Shown here in pieces: positions 18,249-49,336 of a stretch of DNA of 64,000 bases (positions are counted from its first letter, which is position 1; each line of letters starts with the position of its first letter). The stretch lies in the NCBI GenBank assembly GCA_023898465.1, contig CP060223.1, positions 928,001-992,000 on the forward strand, in the 5' to 3' direction. This stretch comes from Candidatus Nomurabacteria bacterium (GTDB taxonomy: Bacteria > Patescibacteriota > Patescibacteriia > HK-STAS-PATE-3). The notes beneath the pieces were generated by a model, which was not told where the DNA came from, made no database searches, and worked only from the letters and a program-made list of their open reading frames with translations. Position numbers and translations under genes: made by a program.

Positions 18249-18304
18249 TTGTACGGTAGGTGCGCATAGAACTTTCATTAGACAATTAATTCCTTAGAAA
18301 AAAC

Positions 18305-19675
18305 ATGTATTGGGCAAATTTCCTGCATATTTATCAACCACCAACCCAAAAACCATATTGGGTGAAGCGAGTCACTGAAGAGTCGTATCGAAAAATCGTT
18401 GCTGAATTAAAGCGCGCTCCGGGTGCTAAACTCACTCTGAACATTAGCGCGGTGCTTGTTGAATTGCTGGATAAGAATGGATGTGGAGATGTTATTGATG
18501 ACATTCGTCTCTTGCTCGAGCGTGGACAAATTGAATTAACCAGCTCAGCAAAGTTTCATCCATTACTACCAAAGATTCCCAAGGATGAAGTTATTCGACA
18601 AATCCAACTGAACGACGAAACGCATCGTAAATATTTTGGTGAACTCTACAAGCCGAAGGGATTTTTCCCACCTGAGATGGCCTTCTCTACCGATGTGGCA
18701 AAGATCGTAAAAGAGCTGGGCTATGAATGGATCATTGTTGATGAATTATCCTTCTCTCGCGAAATCGGCAATATTGATTACAGCAAGCGCTACACGGTTG
18801 AGGGTCTGGATGATTTTTCCATCTACTTCCGTGAACGGCGCATGAGCTACAAAATCCTTTCCGGACAATTAGGATCCGGCTCGCTTCTTATTCAGAGCCT
18901 GGGTGATCGATTAAAGAAAAATGAATACCTCCTAACTGCAATGGATGGAGAAACTTTCGGCCACCACCGTCCAGGTATGGAGCACCTCCTTTTTGAGATT
19001 TACGAATCAAAGGAACTCGAAACTATCCTTATCTCGGATATCCCAAAACACTTCCCAGAGTCCACGCCGATTGATCCTTTGCCATCCACTTGGGCGCTGA
19101 TGGAAAAAGACCTTGAAAAGAATGCGCCGTTTTCTCGCTGGCTTGATCCAGGTAACACAATTCATGAACGACAATGGGAATTAACCAACCTGGCGATTAA
19201 GGCGGTACATGCAAGCGATCAAAGCGATCCAAAATTTCCTGAGGTGCGGACAGCGCTTGATCGAGCAATTCACTCAGATCAATACTGGTGGGCCTCGGCA
19301 AAACCATGGTGGAGTATGGAAATGATTGAGGCAGGCGCTAAGGAGCTGTCTGATGTGGTATTAAACGCGCCAGGCTCAAGTGAAGAGGAGAAGGAACGAG
19401 CGAAACAGCTCTACCAAGAAATTATCTATACCGGCTTTGACTGGCAGCGATCTGGTTTAGTGGAAAAGCTTTCCCAGCAAGAGGATGAGGAAATACGACA
19501 GCGAACTGATGAAGCTATTCCTGAATTACCTGCTGAAGAAATTGATAAAATTATTGCGAACTTGCGCAAAGATATCGATGATGTGGTGAAGCGAGAAGAA
19601 TACGAGCGAGCAGCTCAATTGCGCAATCGCATTAAAGAACTCGAGCAATATCGAGACAAAAAAAGTAAAGAATAA
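18305..19675 (+). CDS. GH57-family enzyme, paralog 2, with C-terminal UVR-like motif
   Basis: HIYQPP, GQIELTSSAKFHPLLP, GFFPPEMAFS, EWIIVDE and SDQYWWAS. The C-terminal EEYERAAQLRNRIKELEQ matches the UVR (UvrB/UvrC) helix motif. Confidence 0.65.
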   Translation: MYWANFLHIYQPPTQKPYWVKRVTEESYRKIVAELKRAPGAKLTLNISAVLVELLDKNGCGDVIDDIRLLLERGQIELTSSAKFHPLLPKIPKDEVIRQIQLNDETHRKYFGELYKPKGFFPPEMAFSTDVAKIVKELGYEWIIVDELSFSREIGNIDYSKRYTVEGLDDFSIYFRERRMSYKILSGQLGSGSLLIQSLGDRLKKNEYLLTAMDGETFGHHRPGMEHLLFEIYESKELETILISDIPKHFPESTPIDPLPSTWALMEKDLEKNAPFSRWLDPGNTIHERQWELTNLAIKAVHASDQSDPKFPEVRTALDRAIHSDQYWWASAKPWWSMEMIEAGAKELSDVVLNAPGSSEEEKERAKQLYQEIIYTGFDWQRSGLVEKLSQQEDEEIRQRTDEAIPELPAEEIDKIIANLRKDIDDVVKREEYERAAQLRNRIKELEQYRDKKSKE

Positions 19676-19753: not shown

Positions 19754-20677
19754 ATGTCACGACTTTCCGCTGAAAAAGTACACTCACTACTCAAACAAAA
19801 AGCTGTTTTTAAGGCTGAGATTACCCATGTGGTACTTGAGAAACACAAAGCCTTTTCTCATTCCAGTCGACTTGCTCGCTATATCGTGTCTCTGGCAAAT
19901 GGGCAAACAAAATATATCCGAGCAAATGTTTGGCCAATCTCAGCTTTTCGTATTGCAGAAGCGCTCAGCGCACAGCAAAGCTTAAAAGCGCCTCAACCGA
20001 TATACTACGACAAGAGTAGTCACACTATTCTTTACGAGGAACTAAATGGTGACACCCTGCGCAGCGTGCCGCTCACCGCAAAAGCATGGAAGCCCATTAT
20101 TCCTAAGGTTGCTCAACTCCTAGCCGCTTTTCATCAAACGCCACTACCTAAGGGCTTAGCACCTGAGACGCAAAGCGCCGCAAAGAAGCGAAGAAAAAAC
20201 CTTGTCCAAGGAATACAAAAGGCTGATAAGGGATATGGCGCACTAGCGAAAGTTGCGTGTAGCCAGCTCGAGTCACAGATTGCTCGCCAGGCCGGAAAAG
20301 TAAAGGCACTCACCCATGGCGATTTCCAGGCAAGTAATATACTCATCGCAAAAAAGAATCTCTCGCTTATTGACTTCACGCTGAGTCGACCAAATCATCC
20401 AGCCAGCGACCTTGGTCTCTGGTTAGTACATTGGCAGGCTATGACGCGCGATCACCTTAGTCACACACAAAGGGAAGAGTTGGGCTATCTCTTTTTACAG
20501 TACTACTTCTCAGCCGTGCCAAAGGCCTGGCACGCACCTATCCGAGCAATGCTTCCAGTCTATGTGAGCGAGGCCACGCTCGAGGTCGCCGCTACCACCT
20601 TGCTTATGTACGGCGCCCACGATACCAATGTTCGCGCATTACTTGATGAATTATTTTCTAGTTTGCACTATGTCTGA
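19754..20677 (+). CDS. APH/choline-kinase-like phosphotransferase (protein-kinase-like fold); possible sugar (malto)kinase
   Basis: HGDFQASNILIAKKNLSLIDFT…ASDLG contains the Brenner HGDxxxxN motif and a DxxxxxxD-like Mg site. Confidence 0.5.
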   Translation: MSRLSAEKVHSLLKQKAVFKAEITHVVLEKHKAFSHSSRLARYIVSLANGQTKYIRANVWPISAFRIAEALSAQQSLKAPQPIYYDKSSHTILYEELNGDTLRSVPLTAKAWKPIIPKVAQLLAAFHQTPLPKGLAPETQSAAKKRRKNLVQGIQKADKGYGALAKVACSQLESQIARQAGKVKALTHGDFQASNILIAKKNLSLIDFTLSRPNHPASDLGLWLVHWQAMTRDHLSHTQREELGYLFLQYYFSAVPKAWHAPIRAMLPVYVSEATLEVAATTLLMYGAHDTNVRALLDELFSSLHYV

Positions 20678-22130
20678 ACGCATCCTCTTTATCTCAGCCG
20701 AAGTAACACCGCTCGCAAAAGTCGGGGGACTGGCCGATGTGGTTGGCGCCCTACCTCCAGCTCTACGAAAACTGGGAGCTGACGCTCGTATCCTCATGCC
20801 AAAGTATGGCGTGATTGATGAAGAAAAATATCCCATGGAAATACGTGGGCAAGGCATCCCAGTCCAGATTGGACAAGGTACGGTGTATGTCGATCTATGG
20901 GAAACAAAATTACCTAATACTGACACTCCGGTCTATCTCATTGGTAATGACAAATTTTTCGGAGGAAGCCGTATCTATTTTGATGCTTCAGCTTTTGCCA
21001 GCCAGTTTGTGGAATTCGAGCGATTCCTTTTCTTTGCCATGTCGAGCGTGGCCGTGCTTGATGCACTCGAATGGAAGCCTACGATTATTCACTGCCATGA
21101 TTGGCACACCGGATTAATTCCCGCTTTACTCAAGCAGGAGAAGCCTCGCATCGCGACAGTCTTCACCATTCATAACCTAGGCAACCAAGGTAAATGGAAC
21201 ACGCCAGATATTTTCCGCTTCCTAGGTTTGCAAGCGCAGGATCGCGCATCATTTAGCCTGACCGACTCCCAGGGTAATTTTAATTGTTTGCTCCAAGGTG
21301 TAGTGAATGCAGATGCGGTAAATACGGTTAGTCCGAGCTATGCCAAAGAGATTCTCACTGCCGAGTATGGAGAGGGTCTCGAAAAAACACTTCAGCAACA
21401 AGGTGACCGCCTAATGGGAATACTGAATGGGATTGATGTTGAACGCTTTGACCCGAGTCGTAATCCTGACCTACCTGAACATTTCAGTGCGGAGAAGCTT
21501 GAGGGAAAAATACGAGCTAAGGAAGCGCTTCAAAAAGAATGCAATCTCGAAGTAAATAAAGAGGTCCCTCTTTTCAGCTTCATCGGTCGACTCACTGATC
21601 AAAAAGGTATGGACCTGATCGGACAATCAGTTGAACATATTTTGAAGCTTGGTGGTCAGCTGGTTCTACTCGGCAGTGGAATGGATGAATTTGAAAAAAT
21701 TGCCCAGGAAGCGGCGGCAAAATATCCCGGGAAGGTGTACACAAAAATTGGCTTTGACGCAGCACTGGCCCAACGGATATACGCCGGAAGTGACTTTTTC
21801 CTCATGCCCTCAAAATATGAGCCATGCGGACTGGGGCAAATAATTGCCATGCGCTATGGCACTATCCCAGTAGTCCGAGCAACTGGAGGCTTGAAAGATA
21901 CCGTGCCAGACTATACCATGAATAGTGCAGAGGGTAGGGGGTTTGCTTTTACGCCATATGCGGCCAGCGATCTCCAAGATGCTATTACCCGAGCGCATCA
22001 GCTTTATCAAAACCAAACCGAGTTTATTCAACTGCAAAAACGCATCATGGGTATTGACCTCTCCTGGAAGCAATCAGCTCGCCAATACCTTGATCTCTAT
22101 ACCCGCGCCCGACAAGAACAACGACCATGA
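20670..22130 (+). CDS. glgA: glycogen/starch synthase (GT5, GlgA-like), paralog 2
   Basis: MSERILFISAEVTPLAKVGGLADVVGALP…HCHDWHTGL… ATG 20670 overlaps the stop of the kinase gene. Confidence 0.85.
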   Translation: MSERILFISAEVTPLAKVGGLADVVGALPPALRKLGADARILMPKYGVIDEEKYPMEIRGQGIPVQIGQGTVYVDLWETKLPNTDTPVYLIGNDKFFGGSRIYFDASAFASQFVEFERFLFFAMSSVAVLDALEWKPTIIHCHDWHTGLIPALLKQEKPRIATVFTIHNLGNQGKWNTPDIFRFLGLQAQDRASFSLTDSQGNFNCLLQGVVNADAVNTVSPSYAKEILTAEYGEGLEKTLQQQGDRLMGILNGIDVERFDPSRNPDLPEHFSAEKLEGKIRAKEALQKECNLEVNKEVPLFSFIGRLTDQKGMDLIGQSVEHILKLGGQLVLLGSGMDEFEKIAQEAAAKYPGKVYTKIGFDAALAQRIYAGSDFFLMPSKYEPCGLGQIIAMRYGTIPVVRATGGLKDTVPDYTMNSAEGRGFAFTPYAASDLQDAITRAHQLYQNQTEFIQLQKRIMGIDLSWKQSARQYLDLYTRARQEQRP

Positions 22131-23128
22131 AACAAAGTGAAATCCGCCAAGATTACGTTCATAACCGAGTAGTCATTATCTCGCCAGGTCGCTCAAAGCG
22201 CCCGCATGATTTTCATCCTACTGGCACGCCGCACCAGGTTCATCGAGCTGAGTGTCCGTTTTGTCCTGAGCAAGTAGATAAGGTGAAGGCGGTAGCGAGC
22301 TACAAAGGTCAAAAGCCTTGGAGTATTAAGGTTATCAAAAACATCTTCCCGGCGGTTCGGAAAGATAATCCTAAGGCCTACGGTGATCAAGAGGTTGTTA
22401 TTGAAACGCCTGAACATGATTTAGAGCTATCAGAACTTTCTGTCGAGCATATTGAGCAACTTTTGAAAGTATATGCTGACCGTACTTGGGCGCAATCAAA
22501 AGACAAGAAGATTCAATACATCATGATCTTCAAAAACAACGGGGGTCGAGCTGGCGCTTCTATTGACCATGCTCACTCTCAAGTGTTTGCCACAAACTTC
22601 CTCCCACCGCACATTGTCGATAAGCTTCGCCGCGCTGAGGAATATCTTATCCGCTATGGAACTTGTTACTACTGTGACTTGATTGCGAAAGAGGGTAAGG
22701 GACCGCGCATGATCGAGAATAATGAATTTGTTTTTGTGGAAGCTCCCTATGCTTCATCGTATAATTACGAAGCTTGGATCTTGCCAAAGCGCCACCTCGA
22801 TAATATTACGAATCTCAATAAGGCGGAACGTCTGGCTTTTGCAAGGGCGCTAAAAAATATACTTGGCAAGTTAAATAGCATTGGCCTCCCATATAATTAC
22901 TACCTGCACCAGGTGGTTCGCTATGGAAATGAACACCTTTACTTCCGTGTAGCACCGCGTCGTGATGTATGGGCAGGAGTGGAATTAGGATCGCGACTTA
23001 TTGTGAATACCGTACCACCGGAAGACGCCGCCGCCTTTTACCGCGGTGACGATGAGAAAAAGAAAGGTAAGAAAAAGTCCGCAACGAAAAAGCTTTCTAA
23101 TAAACGAAAGTCCGCCAAGCGCAAATAG
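22127..23128 (+). CDS. GalT-like HIT-superfamily nucleotidyltransferase/phosphorylase with Lys-rich C-terminal tail
   Basis: CPFCPEQ (Zn site), ASIDHAHSQVFA (HxHxQ nucleotidyl-His motif). The C-terminal 30 aa are KKKGKKKSATKKLSNKRKSAKRK. Confidence 0.65.
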   Translation: MKQSEIRQDYVHNRVVIISPGRSKRPHDFHPTGTPHQVHRAECPFCPEQVDKVKAVASYKGQKPWSIKVIKNIFPAVRKDNPKAYGDQEVVIETPEHDLELSELSVEHIEQLLKVYADRTWAQSKDKKIQYIMIFKNNGGRAGASIDHAHSQVFATNFLPPHIVDKLRRAEEYLIRYGTCYYCDLIAKEGKGPRMIENNEFVFVEAPYASSYNYEAWILPKRHLDNITNLNKAERLAFARALKNILGKLNSIGLPYNYYLHQVVRYGNEHLYFRVAPRRDVWAGVELGSRLIVNTVPPEDAAAFYRGDDEKKKGKKKSATKKLSNKRKSAKRK

Positions 23129-23185
23129 CTCGTACTTGCCAAATCCCATGTCGTAGCCGAAGCATTGAGCTTCGGCGGCTTCAAT

Positions 23186-23262
23186 TGATAAAAGAAAACC
23201 CCGACCACAGCGCTAGTCCTCGTGCATAGACACGTGGATAGATGTGATCGGGGAAAGTACGG
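23186..23262 (-). terminator. terminator cassette A1 (minus strand; CCCCG…CGGGG stem then UUUUCUUUUAUC), repeated at 23897-23951
   Basis: Minus-strand read: GTACTTTCCCCGATCACA…AGCGCTGTGGTCGGGGTTTTCTTTTATCAATTGAAGC. Confidence 0.55.
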
Positions 23263-23264
23263 AG

Positions 23265-23843
23265 CTACTGGTAGATTGACTTCACCTGACCCCAACTCCT
23301 GCTGAGGGTTGGCACCGGCCCGATTGTACCATAGGTCCGGAAGAGCCAATCATACGGCTTTTCTTCGCCTGCACTGTAGGCGGTGCCGCCAGGGTATTCG
23401 CATCCACCTTCTACCCGTCGTTCGGTGGCCCAACCGTTGTTTGAATGCGAAACAGGATGAAGGTAGTAGGTGGCGCCAGGCTGAATGGTCACACCACCGA
23501 AGTCGAAACTGATCCAGTTGTCCCCGCCCGACTCAACGTCTTGCGTCGCAACAGCCAGAACACTCTCGCCAGGCACCACTGAGTTCTGGAGAAAGAGCGT
23601 CACCGTACCCGCGGCTGGGTAAAAGAACAGCTCAACACCGCACAAGTAGTCCATCGTCGGCGTGAAAGACTGCAACAAACAACTTGAAAGTTCTTCCTCT
23701 GGAGTGCAGTACATACTGTGTCCAAAAGTCGGACCGATGATTGGTTCACAGCTCTGGTCGAGGTCACCGCAGGGTGCTTGCGCATTCGCGCTGCTTGCAC
23801 ACAGCACCACCAAAGCAAAAACGAGGCCACTGAAACGCGACAT
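23265..23843 (-). CDS. secreted hypothetical protein (GC-rich island 1)
   Basis: Strong SD GGGAGGTG precedes the ATG. Signal peptide MSRFSGLVFALVVLCASSANAQA. It carries 6+ Cys, and the GC content is visibly higher than the flanks. Confidence 0.5.
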   Translation of the reverse strand: MSRFSGLVFALVVLCASSANAQAPCGDLDQSCEPIIGPTFGHSMYCTPEEELSSCLLQSFTPTMDYLCGVELFFYPAAGTVTLFLQNSVVPGESVLAVATQDVESGGDNWISFDFGGVTIQPGATYYLHPVSHSNNGWATERRVEGGCEYPGGTAYSAGEEKPYDWLFRTYGTIGPVPTLSRSWGQVKSIYQ

Positions 23844-23896
23844 GAGACACCTCCCACTTTGTTTGTAAGGAGCCTTGATTAGCTTTACTGCTTCAA

Positions 23897-23951
23897 TAAT
23901 AAACCCCGACCACAGCGCTGCGCAAGCACAGCCGTGGCCGGGGAAGTACTG
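23897..23951 (-). terminator. terminator cassette A2 (paralog of A1)
   Basis: Minus-strand read: AGTACTTCCCCGGCCAC…GCAGCGCTGTGGTCGGGGTTTATTATTGAAGC. Confidence 0.55.
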
Positions 23952-24470
23952 TCACCAGCCATCCATAGTGGTTGACTGGTAATGGAAGTTGCGCTCCTCG
24001 ATCATGCCGGGATCAACGAGACGATCTCCATAGTAACGCCAGTAGTAAGCCCAGCGTCTCATATCGTCGAAGCTCAGACGCCTCCCAGTACAAGAGAGAC
24101 ATAGGTCACCGGCCTCCAAGGTGCGGCAACGCAAATCCCAGTAGAGAGAACCCTCCGTATCGAGTGGGTATTGACGCCACTGACCCCTGCACCAAGCAAG
24201 AGCGTCGCGCAGATCACGGTCATTGCGCTGATGCCACTCCTGCACCAACTCAGCTTGGAACTCGGGCTCGAGGGTCACTCCCTGGGAAAGAGTGATGAGA
24301 AGATTCTGGGCGCTCCGATCTCCGCCGGCCTGACCCTGAATCGTTCTCCAGGGCTTGGCCTTCATAAACGCGAGGTCCCAGACCTTCTCTCGGTCGCTCC
24401 GAGCATCAGCCTGAGCTAATGTGGCGAAACCGAACAGCATCAACACTAGGACGGTAACCCGAATACGCAT
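23952..24470 (-). CDS. secreted hypothetical protein (GC-rich island 1)
   Basis: SD AAGGAGGA precedes the ATG. Signal peptide MRIRVTVLVLMLFGFATLAQA. It is Trp/Arg-rich. Confidence 0.5.
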   Translation of the reverse strand: MRIRVTVLVLMLFGFATLAQADARSDREKVWDLAFMKAKPWRTIQGQAGGDRSAQNLLITLSQGVTLEPEFQAELVQEWHQRNDRDLRDALAWCRGQWRQYPLDTEGSLYWDLRCRTLEAGDLCLSCTGRRLSFDDMRRWAYYWRYYGDRLVDPGMIEERNFHYQSTTMDGW

Positions 24471-24586
24471 GCATCTCCTCCTTGTTTCATGTGCGGTTGT
24501 CGATGTACAGCTGCGTACCGTATACTACGGGTAAGCAACCTTGTCAATCCTTATCCTTCGGAATTCAAGTTTATAACATTAGCATT

Positions 24587-24961
24587 ATGGGTAGTTTCAT
24601 CGAAATCAACGACACGCTCCAACTTACTACTGAGCAAGGCTTTCCCTCGGAGCTTACTTTAGAGAAACACTTGAAAAAGGCGTTCACTGTTGAGGATTTT
24701 AAAGACCAAGTCTTTGAATTTCACCACAAGCCGGACCTGCGGATCTACCACCTTAAACCTACTCGAGTATTTCTCGTTCATAACATTGATGGTAAGTGGT
24801 TGTATTGGGGCCACGCCATGATACTTGAAGAAACGCTCCACGCAGAAACGAAAACAACTTCCGGGAAATTTATCATCACAAAAATTTATTCACCCGAGCA
24901 CCAAAGAACAATGAGCACTATCGAAGTAAGCGAAGGCAAGGAGTATCCTTTTGATGAGTAA
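24587..24961 (+). CDS. hypothetical protein (host-like GC)
   Basis: ATG 24587 (MGSFIEIND…). The upstream part of the track ORF runs into the divergent region and is unlikely. Confidence 0.4.
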   Translation: MGSFIEINDTLQLTTEQGFPSELTLEKHLKKAFTVEDFKDQVFEFHHKPDLRIYHLKPTRVFLVHNIDGKWLYWGHAMILEETLHAETKTTSGKFIITKIYSPEHQRTMSTIEVSEGKEYPFDE

Positions 24962-25724
24962 ATCTCTAGTGCTGCAATCGTGGAACATTAACGGTATTCG
25001 GGCTGCAGTGCGTAAGGGCTTTACCGATTATCTCAAAAAAGAAAAACCTGATGTAATTGGTCTGCAGGAAATAAAAATAAGCGAAGAAGCGCGCTTGGCT
25101 ACTGAGTTTGATTTTGGAGGATATGTGGAGCATTGGCACTCAGCAAAAAAACCTGGATATTCCGGCACTGCGGTGTTGGTAAAAAACGGTATCGCACATA
25201 CAGCTCTGCCGAAACTAGCCTGGGACGACGAAGGACGAATTCAAGCCATCGATATGGGGAAGTATATTTTCCTTAATATCTACTTTCCTAATGCCAGTAA
25301 TGACGGCTTGAAGCGCCTAGCCTTTAAGATGCAGTGGAATGAAAAGCTGCTTAACTACCTCAAGCAACTTGAAAAGAAAAAACCACTTGTCATCACGGGT
25401 GACTATAATGTGGCACATGAAGAAATTGACCTAGCTCGACCGAAAGAAAATACCCAGAGCCCGGGCTTCACTCCTGAGGAGCGTACCTGGATGACGAAGT
25501 TTCTCAAAACAGGTTACGTTGATACTTGGCGTGAAGCCAATCCGAAGAAAGTACAATACACCTGGTGGAGTCAGCGCGGTGGCGCTCGCAGCCGAAATGT
25601 AGGCTGGAGGATTGACTACTTTTGTGTGAGTCAAAAATTCCTCAAACAAACAACTAAACCGGCTATCCTCGACCAAGTGATGGGCTCAGATCACTGTCCG
25701 GTTAGTTTAATAGTATCCTCATAG
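24951..25724 (+). CDS. xth: exodeoxyribonuclease III (EEP family)
   Basis: LVLQSWNINGIRAA…VIGLQEIK…GDYNVAHEEIDL…SDHCPV are canonical Xth/APE motifs. Confidence 0.85.
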   Translation: MMSKSLVLQSWNINGIRAAVRKGFTDYLKKEKPDVIGLQEIKISEEARLATEFDFGGYVEHWHSAKKPGYSGTAVLVKNGIAHTALPKLAWDDEGRIQAIDMGKYIFLNIYFPNASNDGLKRLAFKMQWNEKLLNYLKQLEKKKPLVITGDYNVAHEEIDLARPKENTQSPGFTPEERTWMTKFLKTGYVDTWREANPKKVQYTWWSQRGGARSRNVGWRIDYFCVSQKFLKQTTKPAILDQVMGSDHCPVSLIVSS

Positions 25725-25937
25725 CCGCTGCCTCCGGGCTTTGGCGATGATGAAGTAACGTTTATTCATCTCATATTCCATTGACATCTGCTTTGACTCA
25801 AGGTAATTCAGCTAACCATAGAAATACTGTGGTTAGCTCCTTGAAACAAGTCGAATTTGGAGTACTGCAACGCCTGCAGACAGCCAAAATCGACGCTTCC
25901 ATTAGCGTGACACTGAGCACGTTAAGTGGAGGTTATC

Positions 25938-26894
25938 ATGTCACGGCAAGAAACCTGTCCTCGATGTGTAAAGAAAAACGTTTACGGCGCTCCTCGCCTG
26001 AGAATCACCACTGGAATCACTTGGCTTTGTTACATTGCCTTGTTTACGGCGCTCCTCTGTCTCGCCATTTTCCTGGGAGAGCCAAGCTCTTTCAAGAAGA
26101 GCATTGTGCTCATGTTCATCATCGTTAACGCGGCAACTCTGCTAGGCGCCGCTCACGACCTCCTGATACCCAAGCGGGTTTGGATATGGCGCGATAGAGG
26201 AGACAGTGTACATATTCACAAGGAAGCTCCAACGCTTCCCGACTTCGACTTCTGTGGATTCAAACATCCACTCGTTATGGCCTGGATCAACCGGCCGTGG
26301 CGTCGAGCTGACCTAAGTTGGGGTGCTGACACCTCGGGCATGTGTCTTCCTGAAGTCACTATGTCTTGGACACGCAAACGTCCATACTTCATCGTCACCT
26401 ACCACCAGCTTGGGACGATAACGCAGACTATCCGGATTCGGATAACTGAACCATCCACCATGCTCGACACCCTGAACTGGATTCGCTTCGCACCCAACCC
26501 TTTCAACTTTCAGGCGCACCTCGAGTCGCTAGATAATGAGAGGAGAGTCTCCCATACACTACACGAGCAAACAGAGTGGCTTACCTGGCTCAATGAACTC
26601 GTGTGCGCGCTGTACGTGGCTACCGAGCGACGGCGTACCTCGCTTGGCCAATCTCCTCATGGTCAGTTTGTTCACGCTTATCTCGGCCACCTGCTTGGCT
26701 TCATGCGAGTCCACAACATAACAGGAAGGGAAAGCCCAAACCATGCGGTCCGGGTAGAGGATGAGGCAACACAGATCGCCGACACCATCGCGTCAGCTAA
26801 GCAGGAGGGGGGTAAACACTGGGCAGAACGAGCTGCGGACAAGGTTTGGGAAAACCGAAATCGAGCAGCGCTTGAACCCGTCACTGAGTCGTGA
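25938..26894 (+). CDS. hypothetical two-TM membrane protein (GC-rich island 2)
   Basis: SD GTGGAGGT precedes ATG 25938. It has two N-terminal TM helices then a ~230-aa soluble domain, with no recognisable family. Confidence 0.45.
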   Translation: MSRQETCPRCVKKNVYGAPRLRITTGITWLCYIALFTALLCLAIFLGEPSSFKKSIVLMFIIVNAATLLGAAHDLLIPKRVWIWRDRGDSVHIHKEAPTLPDFDFCGFKHPLVMAWINRPWRRADLSWGADTSGMCLPEVTMSWTRKRPYFIVTYHQLGTITQTIRIRITEPSTMLDTLNWIRFAPNPFNFQAHLESLDNERRVSHTLHEQTEWLTWLNELVCALYVATERRRTSLGQSPHGQFVHAYLGHLLGFMRVHNITGRESPNHAVRVEDEATQIADTIASAKQEGGKHWAERAADKVWENRNRAALEPVTES

Positions 26895-26937
26895 CAATTC
26901 TACGCGCCCTGATCTCTAGGAGATTGGGGCGCTTTTT
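26882..26937 (+). terminator. terminator cassette B1 (13-bp stem GCGCCCTGATCTC/GAGATTGGGGCGC then UUUUU), ~54-bp repeat
   Basis: It starts at the stop codon of the upstream gene and is ≥90% identical to 27936-27988. Confidence 0.6.
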
Positions 26938-27100
26938 ACATTGACGAAATTTTCTGCGCTTGCTAGCGTGAGTCCGCATGAGGAAATGCCTCACGTAAGC
27001 TCTTTACAATAGAGCAATCCTGTAACAAGCCGACGCAAGTAAGGCAATTTGCATCCGCTTGTTTCCCGCCTTGAAAAATCAGGGCCGGTAAGGAGTAAAA

Positions 27101-27931
27101 ATGACCTGCGCGAAAGAATCTACCAAAGAGTTGGATCTCACCAACTACCTACCTCTTCCCAGGGGCGGCTTGCGATGGACGGTCTCCACGCTATGCTTTT
27201 CCCTTGCTGCTTTTCTGGGACTCTTCTTGCTCTTCAAAATGGCCGTCAATAGTGAGGGGCTATGGTGGTCACGCCTGTTCTACGGCTGCCTGATTATCGC
27301 CATCTTAGTCTCACTACTTGGATTTTTTGGCTTGAAGCTACTCCGATTCAACTATGCGTATTGGAGAAGAAATGTGAGGGGTTACTACATCTCCTATCCG
27401 CAAATGGATCGAGTGTACTATCGTGGCGAGCGGGCCAAGGAAAGCTTGGCACTCGTAGAGATGCACCTAGCTCTGGGCGGTTGGCGCCATCAACTTGGGA
27501 GCTTTCATCGAGGCTTTGTGGTTACCTCGCGAGACACTTCCGCGGACTCCATCTTTTGGTATGGAGTAAAAATCGTTCAACAATCACCACAACCTTCAGG
27601 GCTTCGCGTGATCGTCTACAGTCACCGGAAAAAGGAACAAACACCACCAATGAGCCTACGGCATGCCAGCGTGCTTATCGGTAAGTTATGCCGCAACCAG
27701 AGCTCCTTGGAACTTGAGTTTGCAACCTTTCTCACCAGTGAAGATGGGCTCGTTAACGCCTGTATTCGCTTGCTTGAACGGATAAAGACAACCTCGCGCT
27801 TATCCTCTACACAAGAAGGTAGGGCCTTTGCTCGAGATCTTGCAACTGCGGCACTCAGTCACTCCATTCGTGGAACTCGGGAACACCGAGAACTTGTGGA
27901 TCTGCAAGAATACTGGGGTCGAACCAGGTAG
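27101..27931 (+). CDS. hypothetical two-TM membrane protein (GC-rich island 2)
   Basis: SD TAAGGAG precedes ATG 27101. It has two TM helices then a soluble domain. Confidence 0.5.
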   Translation: MTCAKESTKELDLTNYLPLPRGGLRWTVSTLCFSLAAFLGLFLLFKMAVNSEGLWWSRLFYGCLIIAILVSLLGFFGLKLLRFNYAYWRRNVRGYYISYPQMDRVYYRGERAKESLALVEMHLALGGWRHQLGSFHRGFVVTSRDTSADSIFWYGVKIVQQSPQPSGLRVIVYSHRKKEQTPPMSLRHASVLIGKLCRNQSSLELEFATFLTSEDGLVNACIRLLERIKTTSRLSSTQEGRAFARDLATAALSHSIRGTREHRELVDLQEYWGRTR

Positions 27932-27935
27932 ACTC

Positions 27936-27988
27936 ACTTCTCAGTGACAATCCTACGCGCCCTGATCTCTAGGAGATTGGGGCGCTTT
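27936..27988 (+). terminator. terminator cassette B2 (paralog of B1)
   Basis: cacttctcagtgacaatcctacgcgccctgatctctaggagattggggcgcttt. Confidence 0.6.
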
Positions 27989-29180
27989 ACTTTATCTGCA
28001 CAAACCGTCGCTTCCCAACCTGAAGCAAGGGTGCCTTTTTTGCATCCAATTCCTTTGCGCCATCTTTCTCTACCTTGCCATCAATACGGACCGCTCCTTG
28101 CTCAAGCATGCGACGTCCTTCTGACTTTGATGGCACCAACTTTGCGCTGACTAAAATTTCTAACAGCGTGCTTTTTTGCTTCAGGCTGAACTCTGGCACC
28201 TCGTCTGGAGTGGCACCTTTTTGAAATACATTTTGAAATTCAGTTGCCGCCTTATCCGCATCGTTTAAGGAATGATATTGTGCAACCAGAGTATGGGCCA
28301 GCTTTGCTTTGACGTCGCGGGGATTATGGCCTGACTTCAAGCCTTGCGCCATTTCCTCGATCTCGGATAATGGTAAACGACTTAGTAAGGTAAAAAACGT
28401 AACAATCTGCTCGTCAGGAATACGCATGAGCTTGCCATACATATCTTTAGGCGTGTCAGAGAGCAATATTGCGTTGCCATAACTCTGACTCATCTTGCGC
28501 TTCCCGTCAGTACCGACGAGCAAGGGCATAATTACTAAATCTTGCGGAGACTGTTTTGCAGCCTCTTGAAGTGGGCGCGCCTGCAGCTCGTTAAATGTTT
28601 GATCACGACCAATCACTGTCACGTCAGCTTTCAACATTACCGAATCATAACCCTGCAAAAGGGGGTAGGTAATTTCGTGCAATCCAATCTCTTTGCCCTC
28701 TTTCATGCGTTGCTGAAACATGTCCCGCTCAAGCATGCGCTGGACGCTCACCTGAGAGAGTAAGTGAAGAAAATCCTCGGCTGACATTTTATCGTACCAC
28801 TCAGCATTTGAACGTACTTCAACCTTCTTAATATCAAGTATTTTACCTAACTGTGTAACATATTTCTTGGCCAGGCGATGTACTTCTGCGGCCGAACGAA
28901 GCGCTCGACGCTCAGCTCGATCAGTTGGATCACCGAAACGGGCCGTAAAACCACCGATTAGGAACTGGATAGTGTGACCTGCTTCTTGAAATTGGCGCAA
29001 CTTTTCATAAATAACTGCGTGACCCAAATGGAGGTCGGCAGTGGTCGGATCAACTCCGTGCTTAATCTTTAGCTTCTTGCCTGAGGCTAGCTTCTTCTCT
29101 AAGGATGCTCGAACTACGACCTCCGCAACGCCTCGGTCAAGTAAATCGCTTCTCATTGATTGGGCCTGTTTTTTCGCCAT
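27987..29180 (-). CDS. tyrS: tyrosine--tRNA ligase
   Basis: Class I HIGH (TADLHLGHAV), KMSQS (KMSKS variant) and a C-terminal S4-like domain. At 397 aa it fits TyrRS rather than TrpRS. Confidence 0.8.
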   Translation of the reverse strand: MAKKQAQSMRSDLLDRGVAEVVVRASLEKKLASGKKLKIKHGVDPTTADLHLGHAVIYEKLRQFQEAGHTIQFLIGGFTARFGDPTDRAERRALRSAAEVHRLAKKYVTQLGKILDIKKVEVRSNAEWYDKMSAEDFLHLLSQVSVQRMLERDMFQQRMKEGKEIGLHEITYPLLQGYDSVMLKADVTVIGRDQTFNELQARPLQEAAKQSPQDLVIMPLLVGTDGKRKMSQSYGNAILLSDTPKDMYGKLMRIPDEQIVTFFTLLSRLPLSEIEEMAQGLKSGHNPRDVKAKLAHTLVAQYHSLNDADKAATEFQNVFQKGATPDEVPEFSLKQKSTLLEILVSAKLVPSKSEGRRMLEQGAVRIDGKVEKDGAKELDAKKAPLLQVGKRRFVQIK

Positions 29181-35191: not shown

Positions 35192-35374
35192 AAAGCATGG
35201 GGAAATACTCCCAAAAAGACCGTGGATAACTATAGCATAAGCAAAATAAATTGGCTAAAATTAGCCAAAAAAATAGAAAATGTGGATAACTTGTTCATAC
35301 CATGTGTATCAAGCGGTTGAAAAATAGGCGCATTGTACCTTTTTCAAGAAGCTGATAAAATAGCAAAGATTTCT
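35192..35374. promoter_or_regulatory. oriC part 2 / dnaA promoter region with DnaA boxes
   Basis: A perfect box tgtggataa (35281-35289, reverse complement TTATCCACA) and an 8/9 box cgtggataa (35221-35229). Confidence 0.6.
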
Positions 35375-37641: not shown

Positions 37642-38793
37642 ATGGAACTCTCGACCAAGGAGCAAGTTGTTGATGCGCTGCGTTCGCGTGAAAGCATCCT
37701 CATCGTATTGCCAAAAAATCCCAGCCCAGATGCCATAGCTTCTGGGGCGGCCCTGTCTACTATTTTGCGGGCCATGCAAAAAGAAATCCGGATTGTTTCG
37801 AGTGATTTTCAATTTCCTTCCTCACTAGGCTTTTTGCCTGCTCGGCCTGATATCCATACCGACCTGGACGCTGACCGTAAGCTGGTTATTAGTCTCGCTC
37901 TCAAGGAGACCAAACTAGGCGAGCTATCGTATGACGTGCAAGATGACATGTTGAAAATTTTTATTACCCCAAAGGGAAAAGGTTTCCATGAAAAGGATGT
38001 GAAGGCGTCATTAGGAGAATATAACTTTTCACTCATCATCACCCTCGACACACCATCCCTGCAAAGCCTGGGTCCGCTTTTTGAACAAAACGCCGATCTC
38101 TTTTATCAGGTTCCGATTGTAAACATTGATCATCATCCGACAAACGATTCCTTTGGGCAGATTAACTATGTTGATTTAGTAGCGACGTCGACCTCAGAAA
38201 TTGTGCTTGATCTTATTCAAGAGCTAAAACCTGATGTGTTAGATGACGCTATGGCAACAAATTTACTGACTGGAATTATCACAAAGACCCGATGCTTCCG
38301 TAGTCCAAGCGTTACCCCAAAAGCGCTCTCTGTCGCCTCTCATTTAATTGAGATGGGAGCAAAGCGAGAAGATATTGTGCGACATCTTTATCAAACACAT
38401 TCACTCACCGCTCTGAAACTATGGGGACGAGCCTTAGCACGATTAAAAGAGGCGCATCACGGACAGTTTGTCTGGACTATTTTGAATCGCCAGGACTTCC
38501 AAAAATCTGGAGCGGATGCCCGAGCCTTGCACGGAGTAATTGATGAGTTGATTGTAAACATGCCTCGCGCTCGAGTGATTCTAGTAGTCTATGAGGGGGA
38601 AGATGGTCAAATTCATGGTTTGGCCCAGAGCGATAAGCAAATTCGTAATCTTGCCTTGTTTAAAGACTTTCAACCAAGCGGCACAGACGAGTACGCTGAG
38701 TTGCGTTTCCCAGATGAGAGCCTTGAAATTGTGGAAGCAAAAGTAGCAGAGCGAGTCGAAGCATATTTTCGAACGCAAGGACTTCTCTCCTAA
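37642..38793 (+). CDS. nrnA: DHH/DHHA1 phosphoesterase (NrnA-like bifunctional oligoribonuclease/pAp phosphatase)
   Basis: NIDHHPTND (DHH motif), with upstream DxD motifs and a DHHA1-like C-terminus. Confidence 0.7.
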   Translation: MELSTKEQVVDALRSRESILIVLPKNPSPDAIASGAALSTILRAMQKEIRIVSSDFQFPSSLGFLPARPDIHTDLDADRKLVISLALKETKLGELSYDVQDDMLKIFITPKGKGFHEKDVKASLGEYNFSLIITLDTPSLQSLGPLFEQNADLFYQVPIVNIDHHPTNDSFGQINYVDLVATSTSEIVLDLIQELKPDVLDDAMATNLLTGIITKTRCFRSPSVTPKALSVASHLIEMGAKREDIVRHLYQTHSLTALKLWGRALARLKEAHHGQFVWTILNRQDFQKSGADARALHGVIDELIVNMPRARVILVVYEGEDGQIHGLAQSDKQIRNLALFKDFQPSGTDEYAELRFPDESLEIVEAKVAERVEAYFRTQGLLS

Positions 38794-41661: not shown

Positions 41662-44202
41662 TTAACTGCTGCTCAAACTACTTAGTTGTTCCTTCAGGTT
41701 GCTAATATCCTCCTGCGTGGAAGCGCGTAATTCCTCCGGGATACGTGGATTATTGAGCATCGCCTCTTTTTTGGCAATGAGCTGCGTTAAACGCTCTCCT
41801 TCTTTTTCTAACCATTCGGCAAAGGCGGCGACTCGCGGGCGAGGGAAGCTTAATTCCAAGGCCCCGAGCTGAAGCTTGCTCGCATCCTTAGCTGCCGGGC
41901 CAAATGAAATCTTGGTGAGTTTTTCTAAGAGCTCAGTCGCATATCCCGTCTTACTGAGTAAGTGCGCGTGTTCTTCAGTGCTAATTCCGCTATGGGCCTT
42001 AAATGCGCGCAGTGATTGTACGGTTTGTTGGAAGCGTTGGAATTCTTTTTCTGCCTCCAGGTCAATAAAGGTTTTTTGCGGCTGCGGCCAGGCGCTAACA
42101 ATGAGCATTGAGCCCTTGGGATAGAGTTCGCGCCAAATGCGTTCAGTGAAAAAGGGGAGGTAGGGATGGAGCATCTTCAAGATGTGCTCGAGCACGTGTC
42201 GGATGACCGCCGGGTTATTTTCCGTTTTGGCAACTTCTAAATACCAGTCAGCAAATTCATGCCAGGCGAAAGTATATACTTCCTCAGCAGCCGCGCTAAA
42301 ACGATAAGCGTTGAGATGTTCAGTACTTGTTTTAATGCAAGTCTGAAGTCGGGAGAGAATCCATTGGTCAGCCAGACTATGGGCTGCCAAAGTAGTTTCT
42401 TTTTCTTCCACGCCCTGCAAAAGCGCAAAGCGGCTAATATTCCAGAGCTTGTTTACAAAGTTGCGATACGCAGCAATTTTTTGCTCTGATAAACGAGTGT
42501 CATTTCCCGGCGTTGTCCCAATAATGAGGGAGAGTCGTGTGGCGTCAGCGCCATACTTATCAGCCATCTCAAGCGGGTCAATACCATTACCGAGAGACTT
42601 TGACATTTTTCGTCCATGTTCATCACGCACCAGGCCGTGGAGATAGACTGTTTGAAATGGAACCTCTTGTAGGGCATAGGTAGACATGAGAATCATGCGG
42701 GCTACCCAGAAGAAGAGTATGTCATAACCTGTTTCCATGACGCTGGTTGGATGGAAGCGTTTGAGATCCTCAGTCTGCTTTGGCCAACCCAAAGTAGAGA
42801 AGGTCCATAAGCCAGATGAGAACCAGGTATCAAGCGTATCTGATGATTGTTGCCACTCCTTTCCCTTAGGGGCTTTTTCGCCAACATGGATTTCCTTTTG
42901 CTCAGGATTTTTTTCTGATGGACGTTCCCAAACTGGCAAACGATGACCGTACCAAATTTGTCGCGAGATATTCCAATCATGCAGATTTTCCATCCAGTGC
43001 TGGTAAATCTTTTTAAAGCGAGATGGCACGAAAGCTATTTCATCTTGAGTAGCTACCTCTAAAGCTCGCTGCTTCAGGCTTTTTCCATTCAATTTCTTTG
43101 TTGGGGTATCAACACTAATAAACCATTGTTCAGACGGGAGAGGCTCTAGCGCAGTGCCGCAGCGATAACAGGTTGCCAGGTTGTGGTTGTAGTTTTCGTC
43201 AATGTGATCAACCAGTCCTTTTTCTTGAAGAATCTCTACCACCTTCTTTCTCGCTTCTTGTACATCGATGCCAGCATAGGTGCCAGCAGCTTCGGTGAGC
43301 TTGCCTTGTTCATTGATAATTTTTTCGACCGGCAGTTGATATTTTTTAGCCAACTCAAAATCAAGTAGGCTATGACCCGGTGTGATCGTCATTGCACCAC
43401 TGCCAAGTTTCGGATCAGCTGATTCGTCCGCAATCACTCGAGCAGTGATTGGGCCATTGATCCACTCCAGTGCGAATTCTTTATCGATCATATCTCGGTA
43501 GCGCGTATCATCCGGATGAACAATAATTACCTTATCGCCGAATTTCGTTTCTGGACGGGCGGTACCAATAATCACCGGACCGTATTTGAAATAGTAGAAG
43601 GGTGCTTTTTCTTCCTTATACTCGACCTCGTCATCAGCTAAAGTGGATTGACAGCGAGTGCACCAATTTACTACCCGTTGACCACGGTAAATGAGACCGT
43701 CTTCATACATTTGTATAAACATGGTTTGGACGGCCTTGCTTAGACCCTCATCAAGTGTGAAGCGTTCACGGCTCCAATCACAAGAAGCACCGAGTCGTTT
43801 CATCTGTTCGGTAATTTGACCTTGCGATTCTTTTACAAATTTTTCTACCAGCTTGAGAAATTTTTCTCGACCCAAATCGTCCTTAGTTTTTTTTTCAGCC
43901 TTAAGTTTCTTCTCCACAACATTTTGAGTTGCAATTGCAGCATGATCTGTGCCGGGTAACCAGAGCGTTCGTTCACCCTTCATCCGATGATAGCGTACGA
44001 GGGTGTCTTGAAGAGCAATCATCACAGCGTGACCCATATGAAGATTTGCTGTGGTGTTTGGTGGCGGTAAGGCAATCGAAAAAGTAGGGGCACTCTCTGG
44101 TACTTTTAATTTATCTGGATTAAAGGCGCCGGACTTTTCCCACGCTTCGTAAATACCTTTTTCTTCTTCTTTTGGATTGTAGGTTTTGGAGAGCTCTTTC
44201 AT
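41662..44202 (-). CDS. valS: valine--tRNA ligase
   Basis: PPPNTTANLHMGHAV (HIGH), KMSKSLGN, an editing CP1 domain and a C-terminal coiled coil. 846 aa. Confidence 0.85.
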   Translation of the reverse strand: MKELSKTYNPKEEEKGIYEAWEKSGAFNPDKLKVPESAPTFSIALPPPNTTANLHMGHAVMIALQDTLVRYHRMKGERTLWLPGTDHAAIATQNVVEKKLKAEKKTKDDLGREKFLKLVEKFVKESQGQITEQMKRLGASCDWSRERFTLDEGLSKAVQTMFIQMYEDGLIYRGQRVVNWCTRCQSTLADDEVEYKEEKAPFYYFKYGPVIIGTARPETKFGDKVIIVHPDDTRYRDMIDKEFALEWINGPITARVIADESADPKLGSGAMTITPGHSLLDFELAKKYQLPVEKIINEQGKLTEAAGTYAGIDVQEARKKVVEILQEKGLVDHIDENYNHNLATCYRCGTALEPLPSEQWFISVDTPTKKLNGKSLKQRALEVATQDEIAFVPSRFKKIYQHWMENLHDWNISRQIWYGHRLPVWERPSEKNPEQKEIHVGEKAPKGKEWQQSSDTLDTWFSSGLWTFSTLGWPKQTEDLKRFHPTSVMETGYDILFFWVARMILMSTYALQEVPFQTVYLHGLVRDEHGRKMSKSLGNGIDPLEMADKYGADATRLSLIIGTTPGNDTRLSEQKIAAYRNFVNKLWNISRFALLQGVEEKETTLAAHSLADQWILSRLQTCIKTSTEHLNAYRFSAAAEEVYTFAWHEFADWYLEVAKTENNPAVIRHVLEHILKMLHPYLPFFTERIWRELYPKGSMLIVSAWPQPQKTFIDLEAEKEFQRFQQTVQSLRAFKAHSGISTEEHAHLLSKTGYATELLEKLTKISFGPAAKDASKLQLGALELSFPRPRVAAFAEWLEKEGERLTQLIAKKEAMLNNPRIPEELRASTQEDISNLKEQLSSLSSS

Positions 44203-44209
44203 TGGAGAT

Positions 44210-44530
44210 TTTCTTGGATAAATAAAAACGCCTTACTGTTTGTAAGGGTCCACGATGTTGCATCGGGACGGTACCACCTTACTCGCCCTCCGTAGCCTCG
44301 TGCGAAGGAGGGCTTCCGAAGAACTCTTCATTGACGCATGCTGACGGATGCGATCCGGCCAACTTACCTCAGTACCACCTAGGGTACAGGATTCAGTTAG
44401 CAGCTTCCCCAAGGGACACAATGTCTAATACATAGCCAGACAATCTTGGGTTAAGTGCTTTTCGTGAAATGAGAAATAACTGCTTCGATAGTAGGCTTTT
44501 TTCATAAGTCAGTCAAGAACGCTTGACCAA
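44210..44530 (-). promoter_or_regulatory. putative T-box riboswitch leader of valS
   Basis: The minus-strand leader (~330 nt) contains AGUAAGGUGGUACCGUC, which resembles the T-box consensus AGGGUGGNACCGCG. A terminator follows 20 nt downstream, before ATG: ccttacaaacagtaagg then CGUUUUU. The Stem I specifier loop was not resolved. Confidence 0.4.
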
Positions 44531-44597
44531 GTTTTATTATCTACGCTAGGGTCAGAATAGATTTTGCAATGGCTGTTTGACAATGGAGGAAAAAGCG

Positions 44598-48046: not shown

Positions 48047-48673
48047 GTGCGTTTCTGGACTCTGTTTTTGATCCTGTGTTGTCTCTGTGCAAATACCGCC
48101 TTTGCGCGTTCACTGACCTTCACGGCCGGTGAGACTGCGGTGGCCAAGGGTGGCGGCATCGAGTACGCACAGCGTTCTGGTCAGGTTGAGTGGGCAGCCT
48201 TTGCTTATCTCAACGGCAACGTCAACGAGGGCAAAGCGCTCTTGAGCGCTGACCCCACATCGTGGTGTCGGGTTATGGCTGGTCCGATTGTGGGCCTGCA
48301 ATACCAGGACACCCTGGGCGCGCGTCTCTATGGCGGGGCTGAAGCCAAGGTGTTACCGCACTTTGGTAAAGAGCACCTCACCATCAAGGCGGCAACTCGA
48401 CACCGAGGAAGCACACGCTTCCATCATCTGGTGGTAGTGAATTGGATGCATGACTGGTCGCCGAGTATTTCGGCTGGTCCGGTCTACCAACCAATTCTGC
48501 GATCTGATCATTCCCTACCCTGGGATCACCGATTTGGCGTGCAAGTGAACTATAGTCAGAATAGTCACTTCACGTTGATGAGCGAGGTGCGAATGTCGAC
48601 CGGGTCGGCTGACGCGTCCTATGGTGTGTACCATCGGGTGAGTGGCCACATCGAACTGGCCTTCAAGTTCTGA
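48047..48673 (+). CDS. secreted hypothetical protein with signal peptide and C-terminal aromatic residue (beta-barrel-like)
   Basis: SD GAGGGGG, then 4 nt, then GTG. Signal peptide MRFWTLFLILCCLCANTAFA. It has alternating hydrophobic patterns and ends …HIELAFKF. Confidence 0.4.
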   Translation: MRFWTLFLILCCLCANTAFARSLTFTAGETAVAKGGGIEYAQRSGQVEWAAFAYLNGNVNEGKALLSADPTSWCRVMAGPIVGLQYQDTLGARLYGGAEAKVLPHFGKEHLTIKAATRHRGSTRFHHLVVVNWMHDWSPSISAGPVYQPILRSDHSLPWDHRFGVQVNYSQNSHFTLMSEVRMSTGSADASYGVYHRVSGHIELAFKF

Positions 48674-48679
48674 CTCCGA

Positions 48680-48737
48680 CCCCGTCTCTCGTAATCCGAT
48701 ACTGTCGGAGAAACGAGAGGCGGGGTTTTCTTTTATC
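48680..48737 (+). terminator. rho-independent terminator (CCCCGTCTCTCG/CGAGAGGCGGGG then UUUUCUUUUAUC); tail identical to cassette A1
   Basis: CGGGGTTTTCTTTTATCAA is shared with the 23186-23262 element. Confidence 0.6.
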
Positions 48738-48745
48738 AAAAGGAA

Positions 48746-48774
48746 AAAGCGCTGATGCAATGCACCAGCGCTTT
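48746..48774 (-). terminator. terminator hairpin for convergent DUF218 gene (AAAGCGCTG/CAGCGCTTT then U-tract on minus strand)
   Basis: 9-bp perfect stem. The minus-strand downstream sequence is TTTTTCCTTTTGAT. Confidence 0.5.
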
Positions 48775-48778
48775 GTAG

Positions 48779-49336
48779 CTAGCTAAATCGTCGAACCAAG
48801 AAGGCCGACCAACCAAGCAGATCCCACACTAGGAAGGAAAGGAAATGCCGGAAGCGTTTCTGGCAGTTACCTCCATAAGACGAGCGGGCCTTTATGACTA
48901 TGATCTCGATGCCGGAGCCATGCCACACATAGCGGAAAATCGCTCGAGCTCGCCGGGCGTGCCAAGGGTGAGTGACTAGCGCCACGCTACGCCATTCGGG
49001 GTGCTGACGCGTGATGCGCAGGACCTCGATCGCGTTATTGATAGTGCCGATTGAGCCGTTCTCCAGTATCATGTATACATTGCGTGCTCGCGCCTCGATC
49101 AAACGCTTCATCGCGATGGCTTCAGTCATGTGACCATCGTTGCCGTTGCCACCGCTCAGGACAATGCACCGAGCTAGTTCAGCTTGGTAGAGATTGAGAC
49201 CCTTGCGAGCGATTGATGCACTTTGGCGACTGGCTTGCGTGCCATCTGGCGAGAGGCCACAGCCGAGACAGATCACTGCATCGACGGGTTGTTCCGGGTT
49301 GATTCGTTCGTCTGGTATTTCCAGTCGGTGAACCAT
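48779..49336 (-). CDS. DUF218 (YdcF/SanA/ElyC-like) domain protein
   Basis: AVICLGCGLS… and …VLSGGNGNDGHMTEAIAMKRLI… match the DUF218 signature (vLGgg…G.tEA). Confidence 0.55.
   Translation of the reverse strand: MVHRLEIPDERINPEQPVDAVICLGCGLSPDGTQASRQSASIARKGLNLYQAELARCIVLSGGNGNDGHMTEAIAMKRLIEARARNVYMILENGSIGTINNAIEVLRITRQHPEWRSVALVTHPWHARRARAIFRYVWHGSGIEIIVIKARSSYGGNCQKRFRHFLSFLVWDLLGWSAFLVRRFS

Follow-up and report, generated by a model that had tools for sequence, protein, structure and literature searches.

Predicted terminator hairpins with a common 19-nucleotide 3' end at two distant loci of a CPR genome

What does it mean that the predicted terminators of two unrelated genes, 25 kb apart and on opposite strands, end in the same 19 nucleotides? 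The question arises from a 64-kb stretch of DNA (hereafter the window) out of a Candidatus Nomurabacteria (Patescibacteria/CPR) genome of ~1.08 Mb, and it is to this window that the copy counts refer. The 19-mer CGGGGTTTTCTTTTATCAA occurs in it exactly twice, at 48721-48739 on the plus strand (copy 1) and at 23185-23203 on the minus strand (copy 2, at the terminator of gene A1), the two forming inverted-repeat pair I17. An earlier note had described this tail downstream of CCCCG-initiated stems at both loci, a description that proved exact to the last base, and had gone on to suggest either a dispersed terminator family of REP/BIME- or MITE-like character or the signature of a common donor genome or vector. 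The evidence assembled here points elsewhere: the elements are probably intrinsic terminators, of which those of A1 and A2 are local duplicates and that at 48.7 kb is separate and vertically inherited, with no dispersed mobile repeat involved.

The pattern CCCCG-N(15-45)-CGGGGYTT is matched three times in the window, where 0.04 matches would be expected, at 48680-48728 (+), 23196-23253 (-) and 23901-23943 (-), the last of which is cassette A2. The hairpin of copy 1, CCCCGTCTCTCG…CGAGAGGCGGGG (48680-48725, +), is predicted to form 19 pairs, an inner CCGA/TCGG helix among them, and begins 6 nt past the TGA stop (48671-48673) of a 208-aa gene; it folds at -33 kcal/mol alone and at -36.6 kcal/mol with its flanks (z-score -6.3), contains two G·U pairs, and is more stable by 6.4 kcal/mol on the sense than on the antisense strand. 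The A1 hairpin, CCCCGATCACA…TGTGGTCGGGG (23199-23253, -), spans 55 nt with 22 predicted pairs, includes two G·U pairs, starts 11 nt past the TAG stop (23265-23267) of a 192-aa gene and reaches -30.1 kcal/mol (z-score -5.0). The A2 hairpin, CCCCGGCCACGGC…GCTGTGGTCGGGG (23904-23943, -; -31.8 kcal/mol), is of the CCCCG…CGGGGTTT type and lies 8 nt past the stop of the 172-aa gene A2, followed by a weak U-tract, TTTATTATT. All three lie on the strand that encodes the ORF before them. Their folding energies as isolated hairpins are -30 to -33 kcal/mol, their z-scores with flanks against dinucleotide shuffles are -5 to -6.3, and they are the strongest three among 69 hairpin-plus-T-tract candidates in the window. 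Five of the seven hairpins of the family contain 2-4 G·U pairs, which favour the sense RNA, and in these five the sense RNA is 4-9 kcal/mol more stable than the antisense, as would suit a structure under selection in the RNA.

Both copies of the 19-mer are positioned between convergent genes, the 208-aa gene facing a DUF218 gene (48779-49336, -) and A1 facing a gene with GalT-like domains (22127-23128). The A-run after the tail of copy 1 is the U-tract of the DUF218 gene's own predicted terminator (48746-48774, -), and the tail of copy 2 abuts a small hairpin read from the sequence, GCCGAAGC-ATTGA-GCTTCGGC (23156-23176, +), which sits downstream of the GalT-like gene.

The 19-mer itself takes in the final 5 nt of the stem, then the U-tract TTTTCTTTT, which directly follows CGGGG in both copies, and lastly ATCAA; each copy supplies the 3' end and the tail of a hairpin that opens with CCCCG shortly 3' of a stop codon. 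With up to three mismatches allowed there are still two matches in the window, where shuffles lead one to expect none. A pairwise longest-common-substring test on 71 hairpin-plus-T-tract candidates of the window (2483 pairs) gives 74, 21, 8, 2 and 1 pairs whose longest shared substring is 9, 10, 11, 12 and 13 nt, respectively, and three outliers at 18, 18 and 19 nt, namely A1/A2, B1/B2 and A1/copy 1. The next unrelated terminator-like pair shares 13 nt, and the expectation extrapolated to 19 nt is ~2e-3. The identity partly exceeds in-window chance, at a level of roughly 1e-3, and pure coincidence is an uncomfortable source for it. Both loci are recovered at 99.97-100% identity in independent short-read assemblies from other runs and are therefore no assembly artefact.

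Similarity between A1 and copy 1 ends with the 19-mer. The adjoining stems differ (TCTCTCG/CGAGAGG versus ATCACA/TGTGGT), no stem sequence is held in common beyond CCCCG/CGGGG, and local alignment scores 39, only one more than the 38 of the 19-mer alone. What is conserved in the 48.7 kb copy amounts to CGGGG, the U-tract and five further bases, which is essentially the outcome that the earlier note had named as speaking against its reading; extensive similarity is confined to the locally duplicated pair A1/A2. The third member named there, A2, is a CCCCG hairpin with both arms in common with A1; its tail, TTTATTATTGAAG, is not the 19-nt tail, and its U-tract is degraded (UUUAUUAUU).

The two 19-mers make up a perfect inverted repeat that is roughly symmetrical about the likely oriC (midpoint 35,962), the DnaA boxes (35221-35289) upstream of dnaA lying ~12.0 kb from one and ~13.4 kb from the other. 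This symmetry is probably a coincidence, because synteny in relatives shows no inversion: an origin-centred inversion between the 19-mers was considered and rejected, both junctions being conserved in the relatives.

The genes that precede the hairpins are alike in general character and unrelated in BLASTP. The 208-aa ORFan gene (48047-48673, +; 56% GC), the last of three in island 2 (109, 94 and 208 aa), the 192-aa ORFan A1 (23265-23843, -; 55% GC) and the 172-aa A2 (23952-24470, -; 57% GC) each encode a signal-peptide-like N-terminus, and island genes in general have 50-57% GC against 47% for the window. BLASTP detects no mutual similarity among the three proteins, in agreement with the earlier description of terminator-like hairpins at the 3' ends of unrelated accessory genes. 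None of the three has a Pfam, NCBIfam or PHROGs family match, and the same searches on all island proteins return only a below-cutoff GH115_C match to the product of B1. The sole database match of the A1 protein is itself. Homologues of A2 are found in the same genomic interval of relatives, at about 28-30% identity in L037/L038 and at 42% in L040. The 208-aa protein has just two homologues in 5.8 billion sequences (87% and 65% identity), and a profile search adds 14 remote homologues (E about 1e-10), all lacking Pfam domains and some of them C-terminal domains of proteins 460-490 aa long. Its AlphaFold model is unusable (pLDDT 30). In this poor model the protein is β-strand-rich, and its C-terminus, …ELAFKF, resembles the C-terminal signature of outer-membrane β-barrels, which would be odd for a Patescibacterium.

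The history of copy 1 can be followed in two relatives, L035 and L036, whose orthologous loci have 89% and ~72% nucleotide identity to the window. The gene order is the same in all three: TsaD, a 192-aa membrane protein, the genes of 109, 94 and 208 aa, and DUF218. A hairpin is kept at the position of copy 1 in both relatives (CCCCGCCTCTTG…CGAGAGGCGGGGTTTCTTTTATCAAAAGG in L035 and CCCCGTCTGCA…TGCAGGCGGGGCTTTCTTTATAGTAAAAGG in L036), and the inner stem is exchanged in a compensatory manner, CTCG/CGAG in the window versus GCA/TGC in L036. The tail has meanwhile drifted to GGGGTTTCTTTTATCAAAAGG in L035 and to GGGGCTTTCTTTATAGTAAAAGG in L036, at about the rate of the surrounding sequence. Copy 1 is in this way fixed and orthologous in three lineages. 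Judged from 3-4 sequences per locus, structure is conserved over sequence: both sides of the stem have changed in L035 and L036, and L037 keeps an A2-type hairpin at the other locus. Because of the syntenic orthologues, the compensatory stem changes and the drifting tail, island 2 and its terminator are old and vertically inherited, with no recent arrival from a shared vector.

Searches for further members of a family brought up none. With blastn-short, all four terminator types find no member in the window beyond the links described here, and a profile of the 3' arm and tail, run with nhmmer over 147 kb (the window and 83 kb from relatives), recovers the training loci only, the next match having E > 2. 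Profiles built from one locus do rank the terminators of the other first among non-self matches in the same 147 kb, at non-significant values (E = 0.02-5), a ranking that is suggestive of a shared type without being significant. Pattern searches yield the three CCCCG hairpins in the window and no other member, there or in the 83 kb of relatives. The extension to other genomes and phages, proposed in the earlier note, turned up either nothing or generic terminators of no relation to these. Of 185,579 species genomes, 29 unrelated ones contain the exact 19-mer, as do 37 metagenome stretches and a single viral contig, and none of the matches in the genome, metagenome and viral collections comes from this lineage. 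About a third of them close short, unrelated CCCCG-stem terminators, and all are single-copy in their stretch except for one 74-nt tandem on a metagenome contig with 44% GC and a flank that matches a Bacteroidales MAG which is itself among the matches (L008). On this evidence, the 19-mer reads as a generic terminator 3' end. In viral contigs the A-type arm has one match, apparently within coding sequence, and the B-type stem has none.

No sign of a mobile carrier emerged either. A blastn comparison of both islands with phages and plasmids gives no match, and no transposase, integrase, recombinase or RAYT domain is present among the scanned ORFs of the window or in the precomputed Pfam annotation. 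Neither target-site duplications nor terminal inverted repeats were found around the hairpins. Rfam returns nothing for the whole window at gathering thresholds and, in E-value mode on both islands and the 44.2-45.7 kb island, only a sub-threshold chance match to ncS01 (E = 0.9). In the literature, nothing relevant was found on terminators or islands in CPR/Nomurabacteria.

A1 and A2 belong to island 1, which fills the interval from the GalT-like gene to TyrRS (23130-27990 in the window), a few kb from dnaN/dnaA, and the genes of this interval differ from one genome to the next. In the window they are A1, A2, a 124-aa gene, xth, B1 and B2; L037 and L038 have an A2 homologue only; in L039 there are DUF5667 and a sigma factor; in L040 there are xth and genes of 153 and 123 aa, with its A2 homologue elsewhere in the interval; and in L082 the interval is empty, 490 nt long and without a CCCCG hairpin. 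The gene sets compared (these genomes and L083) consist mostly of ORFans, and the interval looks like a gene-flux hot spot beside the replication origin. In L039 and L040, GalT is 72-73% identical to that of the window and the contigs have ~58% GC, against 47% in the window and 45% in L037.

Within this interval, A1 is bracketed by direct terminator repeats (23185-23960). The A1 and A2 hairpins have both arms in common, GTACTT(T)CCCCGRYCAC on the 5' side and the 19-nt 3' arm AGCGCTGTGGTCGGGGTTT, and the repeats further include ATTGAAGC; their loops, of 14 and 29 nt, are unrelated. In L037 and L038 the A2 homologue lies directly beside GalT and ends in the terminator CCCCGGCCACACCTGCATTCGTGCAGCTCTGTGCCCGGGGTTTTTCTTTTAT, which in L037 faces GalT. 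The L037 terminator, CCCCGGCCACACCTGCATTCGTGCAGCTCTGTGCCCGGGGTTTTTCTTTTATTCC, matches the window's A2 hairpin at 33/43 ungapped positions, and the 3' arm and tail of A1 at 24/28 aligned positions. A1/A2 is a local duplication, and the older terminator from which it derives is found in a relative as well. On the simplest reading, the ancestral A2 terminator would already have borne a T4-5CT4AT tail, TTTT(T)CTTTTAT, which a relative keeps beside its A2 homologue; in the lineage of the window the terminator would have been duplicated upon the gain of A1, and the GalT-proximal copy would have retained the old tail. With the old tail kept at the GalT-proximal copy, the tail of A1 needs no donor at 48.7 kb. 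The upstream copy, that of A2, has lost most of its U-tract, which could permit read-through from A2 into A1.

The same interval holds a second pair, a 45-nt terminator repeat of B type (family D8), with one copy at 26891-26935 (+) after gene B1 (25926-26894) and another, 44/45 identical, at 27944-27988 (+) after gene B2 (27101-27931). These copies bracket B2, and the B1 and B2 proteins show no similarity in BLASTP. Both proteins apparently start with hydrophobic, membrane-helix-like segments. Logan contigs assembled at k=31 terminate inside the B-type repeats. The terminators of A1/A2 and B1/B2 are undoubted cases of copying, and some copying process operates in the window.

It is very improbable that the hairpins are a mobile repeat of REP/BIME or MITE type with a second role as terminator: although they are imperfect palindromes at gene 3' ends, three within 64 kb, and their sharing is above chance, the distant copies have no stem consensus and neither terminal inverted repeats nor target-site duplications, every copy is sense-oriented directly past a stop codon, and the copy at 48.7 kb is orthologously conserved and evolves by compensatory substitution. 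Nor are there extra copies in the 147 kb of this lineage, related copies in public genomes, metagenomes or viral contigs, or a RAYT or transposase gene in the window, and the dispersed element that the earlier note had envisaged is therefore left without a shared stem, further members or a mobilizing enzyme there. Somewhat better placed, and still improbable, is the idea that the two loci owe their shared 3' end to one donor lineage or vector, from which the GC-rich island genes would have arrived with their own terminators. It is the composition of these genes that speaks for it, since the wide range of GC across the clade makes GC-rich relatives plausible sources of the 50-57% GC island genes: the Patescibacteria contigs L039 and L040 stand at 58% GC, the A2 homologue of L040 (42% identity) reaches 61% GC, L040 carries a CCCCCG…CGGGGCTTCTTTCGTATCC terminator at the GalT-adjacent site, and in the window CCCCG-type hairpins follow GC-rich ORFan genes only. 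Such an origin is hard to reconcile with island 2, which keeps its synteny in relatives whose proteins are 87% and 65% identical, with a terminator that evolves in place, and which must on that account be old and vertical; this weakens the donor or vector proposed in the earlier note, as far as island 2 is concerned. The tail drifts about as its surroundings do, and a perfectly kept donor signature would be unexpected; neither island has a phage, plasmid or viral match, and the island proteins have no PHROGs family match.

A further possibility, unlikely though the least so of these, is that the terminator hairpins act as crossover points for the cassette-like gain of ORFan genes, with the 19-mer a remnant of the module at the second locus. 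An inserted gene would carry a conserved-arm hairpin, or recombine at one, and would come to be bracketed by two terminator copies, as A1 is by arm-sharing direct repeats with completely different loops and B2 by the near-identical B-type copies, even though B1 and B2 are unrelated. The gene set of the interval differs in each relative, the CCCCG hairpin is absent from the empty L082 and travels with accessory genes, and the ancestral tail is GalT-proximal, as a crossover inside the site predicts. Against this, the bracketed genes number only two, the window is without a recombinase gene, no attC-type core (GTTRRRY) is seen on reading the sites, and the G·U pairs suggest selection at the RNA and not the DNA level; no strain without A1 or B2 was found, strain-level contigs being identical, and the stem sequence of copy 1 is common to neither A1 nor A2. 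In its fuller form, in which hairpin terminators would be insertion or exchange sites for new ORFan secreted-protein genes at a near-origin slot and the 48.7 kb 19-mer a relic, the proposal is slightly less likely again, and it may imply a cassette system that is either recombinase-independent or served by an unknown recombinase.

The preferred reading is that of intrinsic terminators with one local duplication. The three elements would be Rho-independent (intrinsic) terminators of lineage-specific, GC-rich secreted-protein genes, each made up of a long GC-clamped RNA hairpin and a U-tract at a gene convergence. Their position, orientation and fold, their conservation with compensatory change and the lack of further copies in the sequence covered are matters of direct observation; that they terminate transcription, and why the 19 nt are identical, we infer. 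The terminator at 48.7 kb matches that of A1 only in the most generic portion of such a signal, with CGGGG at the base of the stem, then the UUUUCUUUU tract and a further five bases, and this 19-nt match may have arisen by convergence on a favoured terminator 3' end or may descend from an old common origin that is now unrecognisable.

As a result on terminators this is minor: three well-formed predicted intrinsic terminators are added to a CPR genome, together with the reminder that a 19-nt identity between terminators need not imply a mobile element. The flux between GalT and TyrRS and the two bracketed genes could be modestly useful for understanding how small Patescibacteria genomes gain lineage-specific secreted proteins.

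Several other features of the window deserve mention. ARAGORN places an 85-nt tRNA-Met at 38578-38662, inside the 3' part of a DHH-family ORF (37642-38793); Rfam finds no tRNA there, and the call is therefore probably a false positive. Between 3365 and 4725 there are three tandem repeats of ~300 nt, 77-83% identical and spaced by 479 and 495 nt, which correspond to tandem small genes with T4SS_pilin (PF18895) matches in the corresponding Logan contig (L044). Upstream of a class I aminoacyl-tRNA synthetase gene (41662-44202, -) lies an apparently non-coding segment of ~370 nt (44203-44576), which has no Rfam match even at E <= 1 and could be an unmodelled leader RNA. Upstream of GalT, tandem GH57 paralogues (17004-19675) and two GT5 glycogen-synthase-like paralogues (15529-17004 and 20628-22130), with patches of 74-84% identical DNA at a spacing of 1301 nt, form a duplicated glycogen-metabolism cluster.

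Comparison with known systems sets the hairpins apart from several classes of repeat and brings them closest to terminators. The uptake sequences (DUS/USS) of Neisseria and Pasteurellaceae similarly include short sequences that recur in the terminator hairpins of unrelated genes; they number hundreds to thousands per genome, whereas the sequence shared here occurs twice in 64 kb and is absent from 83 kb of relatives. REP/BIME elements of Enterobacteria and Pseudomonas are likewise imperfect palindromes outside genes, on their 3' side, and they can terminate transcripts or make them more stable. A REP family has a consensus throughout, numbers tens to hundreds of copies, forms clusters in which the orientation alternates, and is associated with a RAYT transposase; by contrast, the window has three copies in one orientation, with no stem consensus across loci and no RAYT found. 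A1 and A2, though not copy 1, recall the attC sites of integrons, with a hairpin 3' of each promoter-proximal ORF, conserved outer arms around a variable centre and a gene bracketed by two hairpin sites. However, the window has no integrase and no attI, there are only two units, the U-tract and G·U pairs point to a function in RNA, and direct reading of the arm ends of A1, A2 and copy 1 reveals no RYYYAAC/GTTRRRY cores. The closest correspondence is with Rho-independent terminators. Typical terminator stems have 5-14 bp, and the predicted hairpins described here are unusually long and stable by comparison (40-55 nt, 16-22 pairs, -30 to -33 kcal/mol); the degraded U-tract of A2 is a further difference. 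In other respects they agree: the stem is GC-rich, with a G/C clamp beside the U-tract, it lies in the sense orientation a few nucleotides past the stop codon, the hairpin is kept through compensatory change, and at both loci of the 19-mer the U-tract leads into the convergent gene's own terminator hairpin, as in back-to-back terminators.
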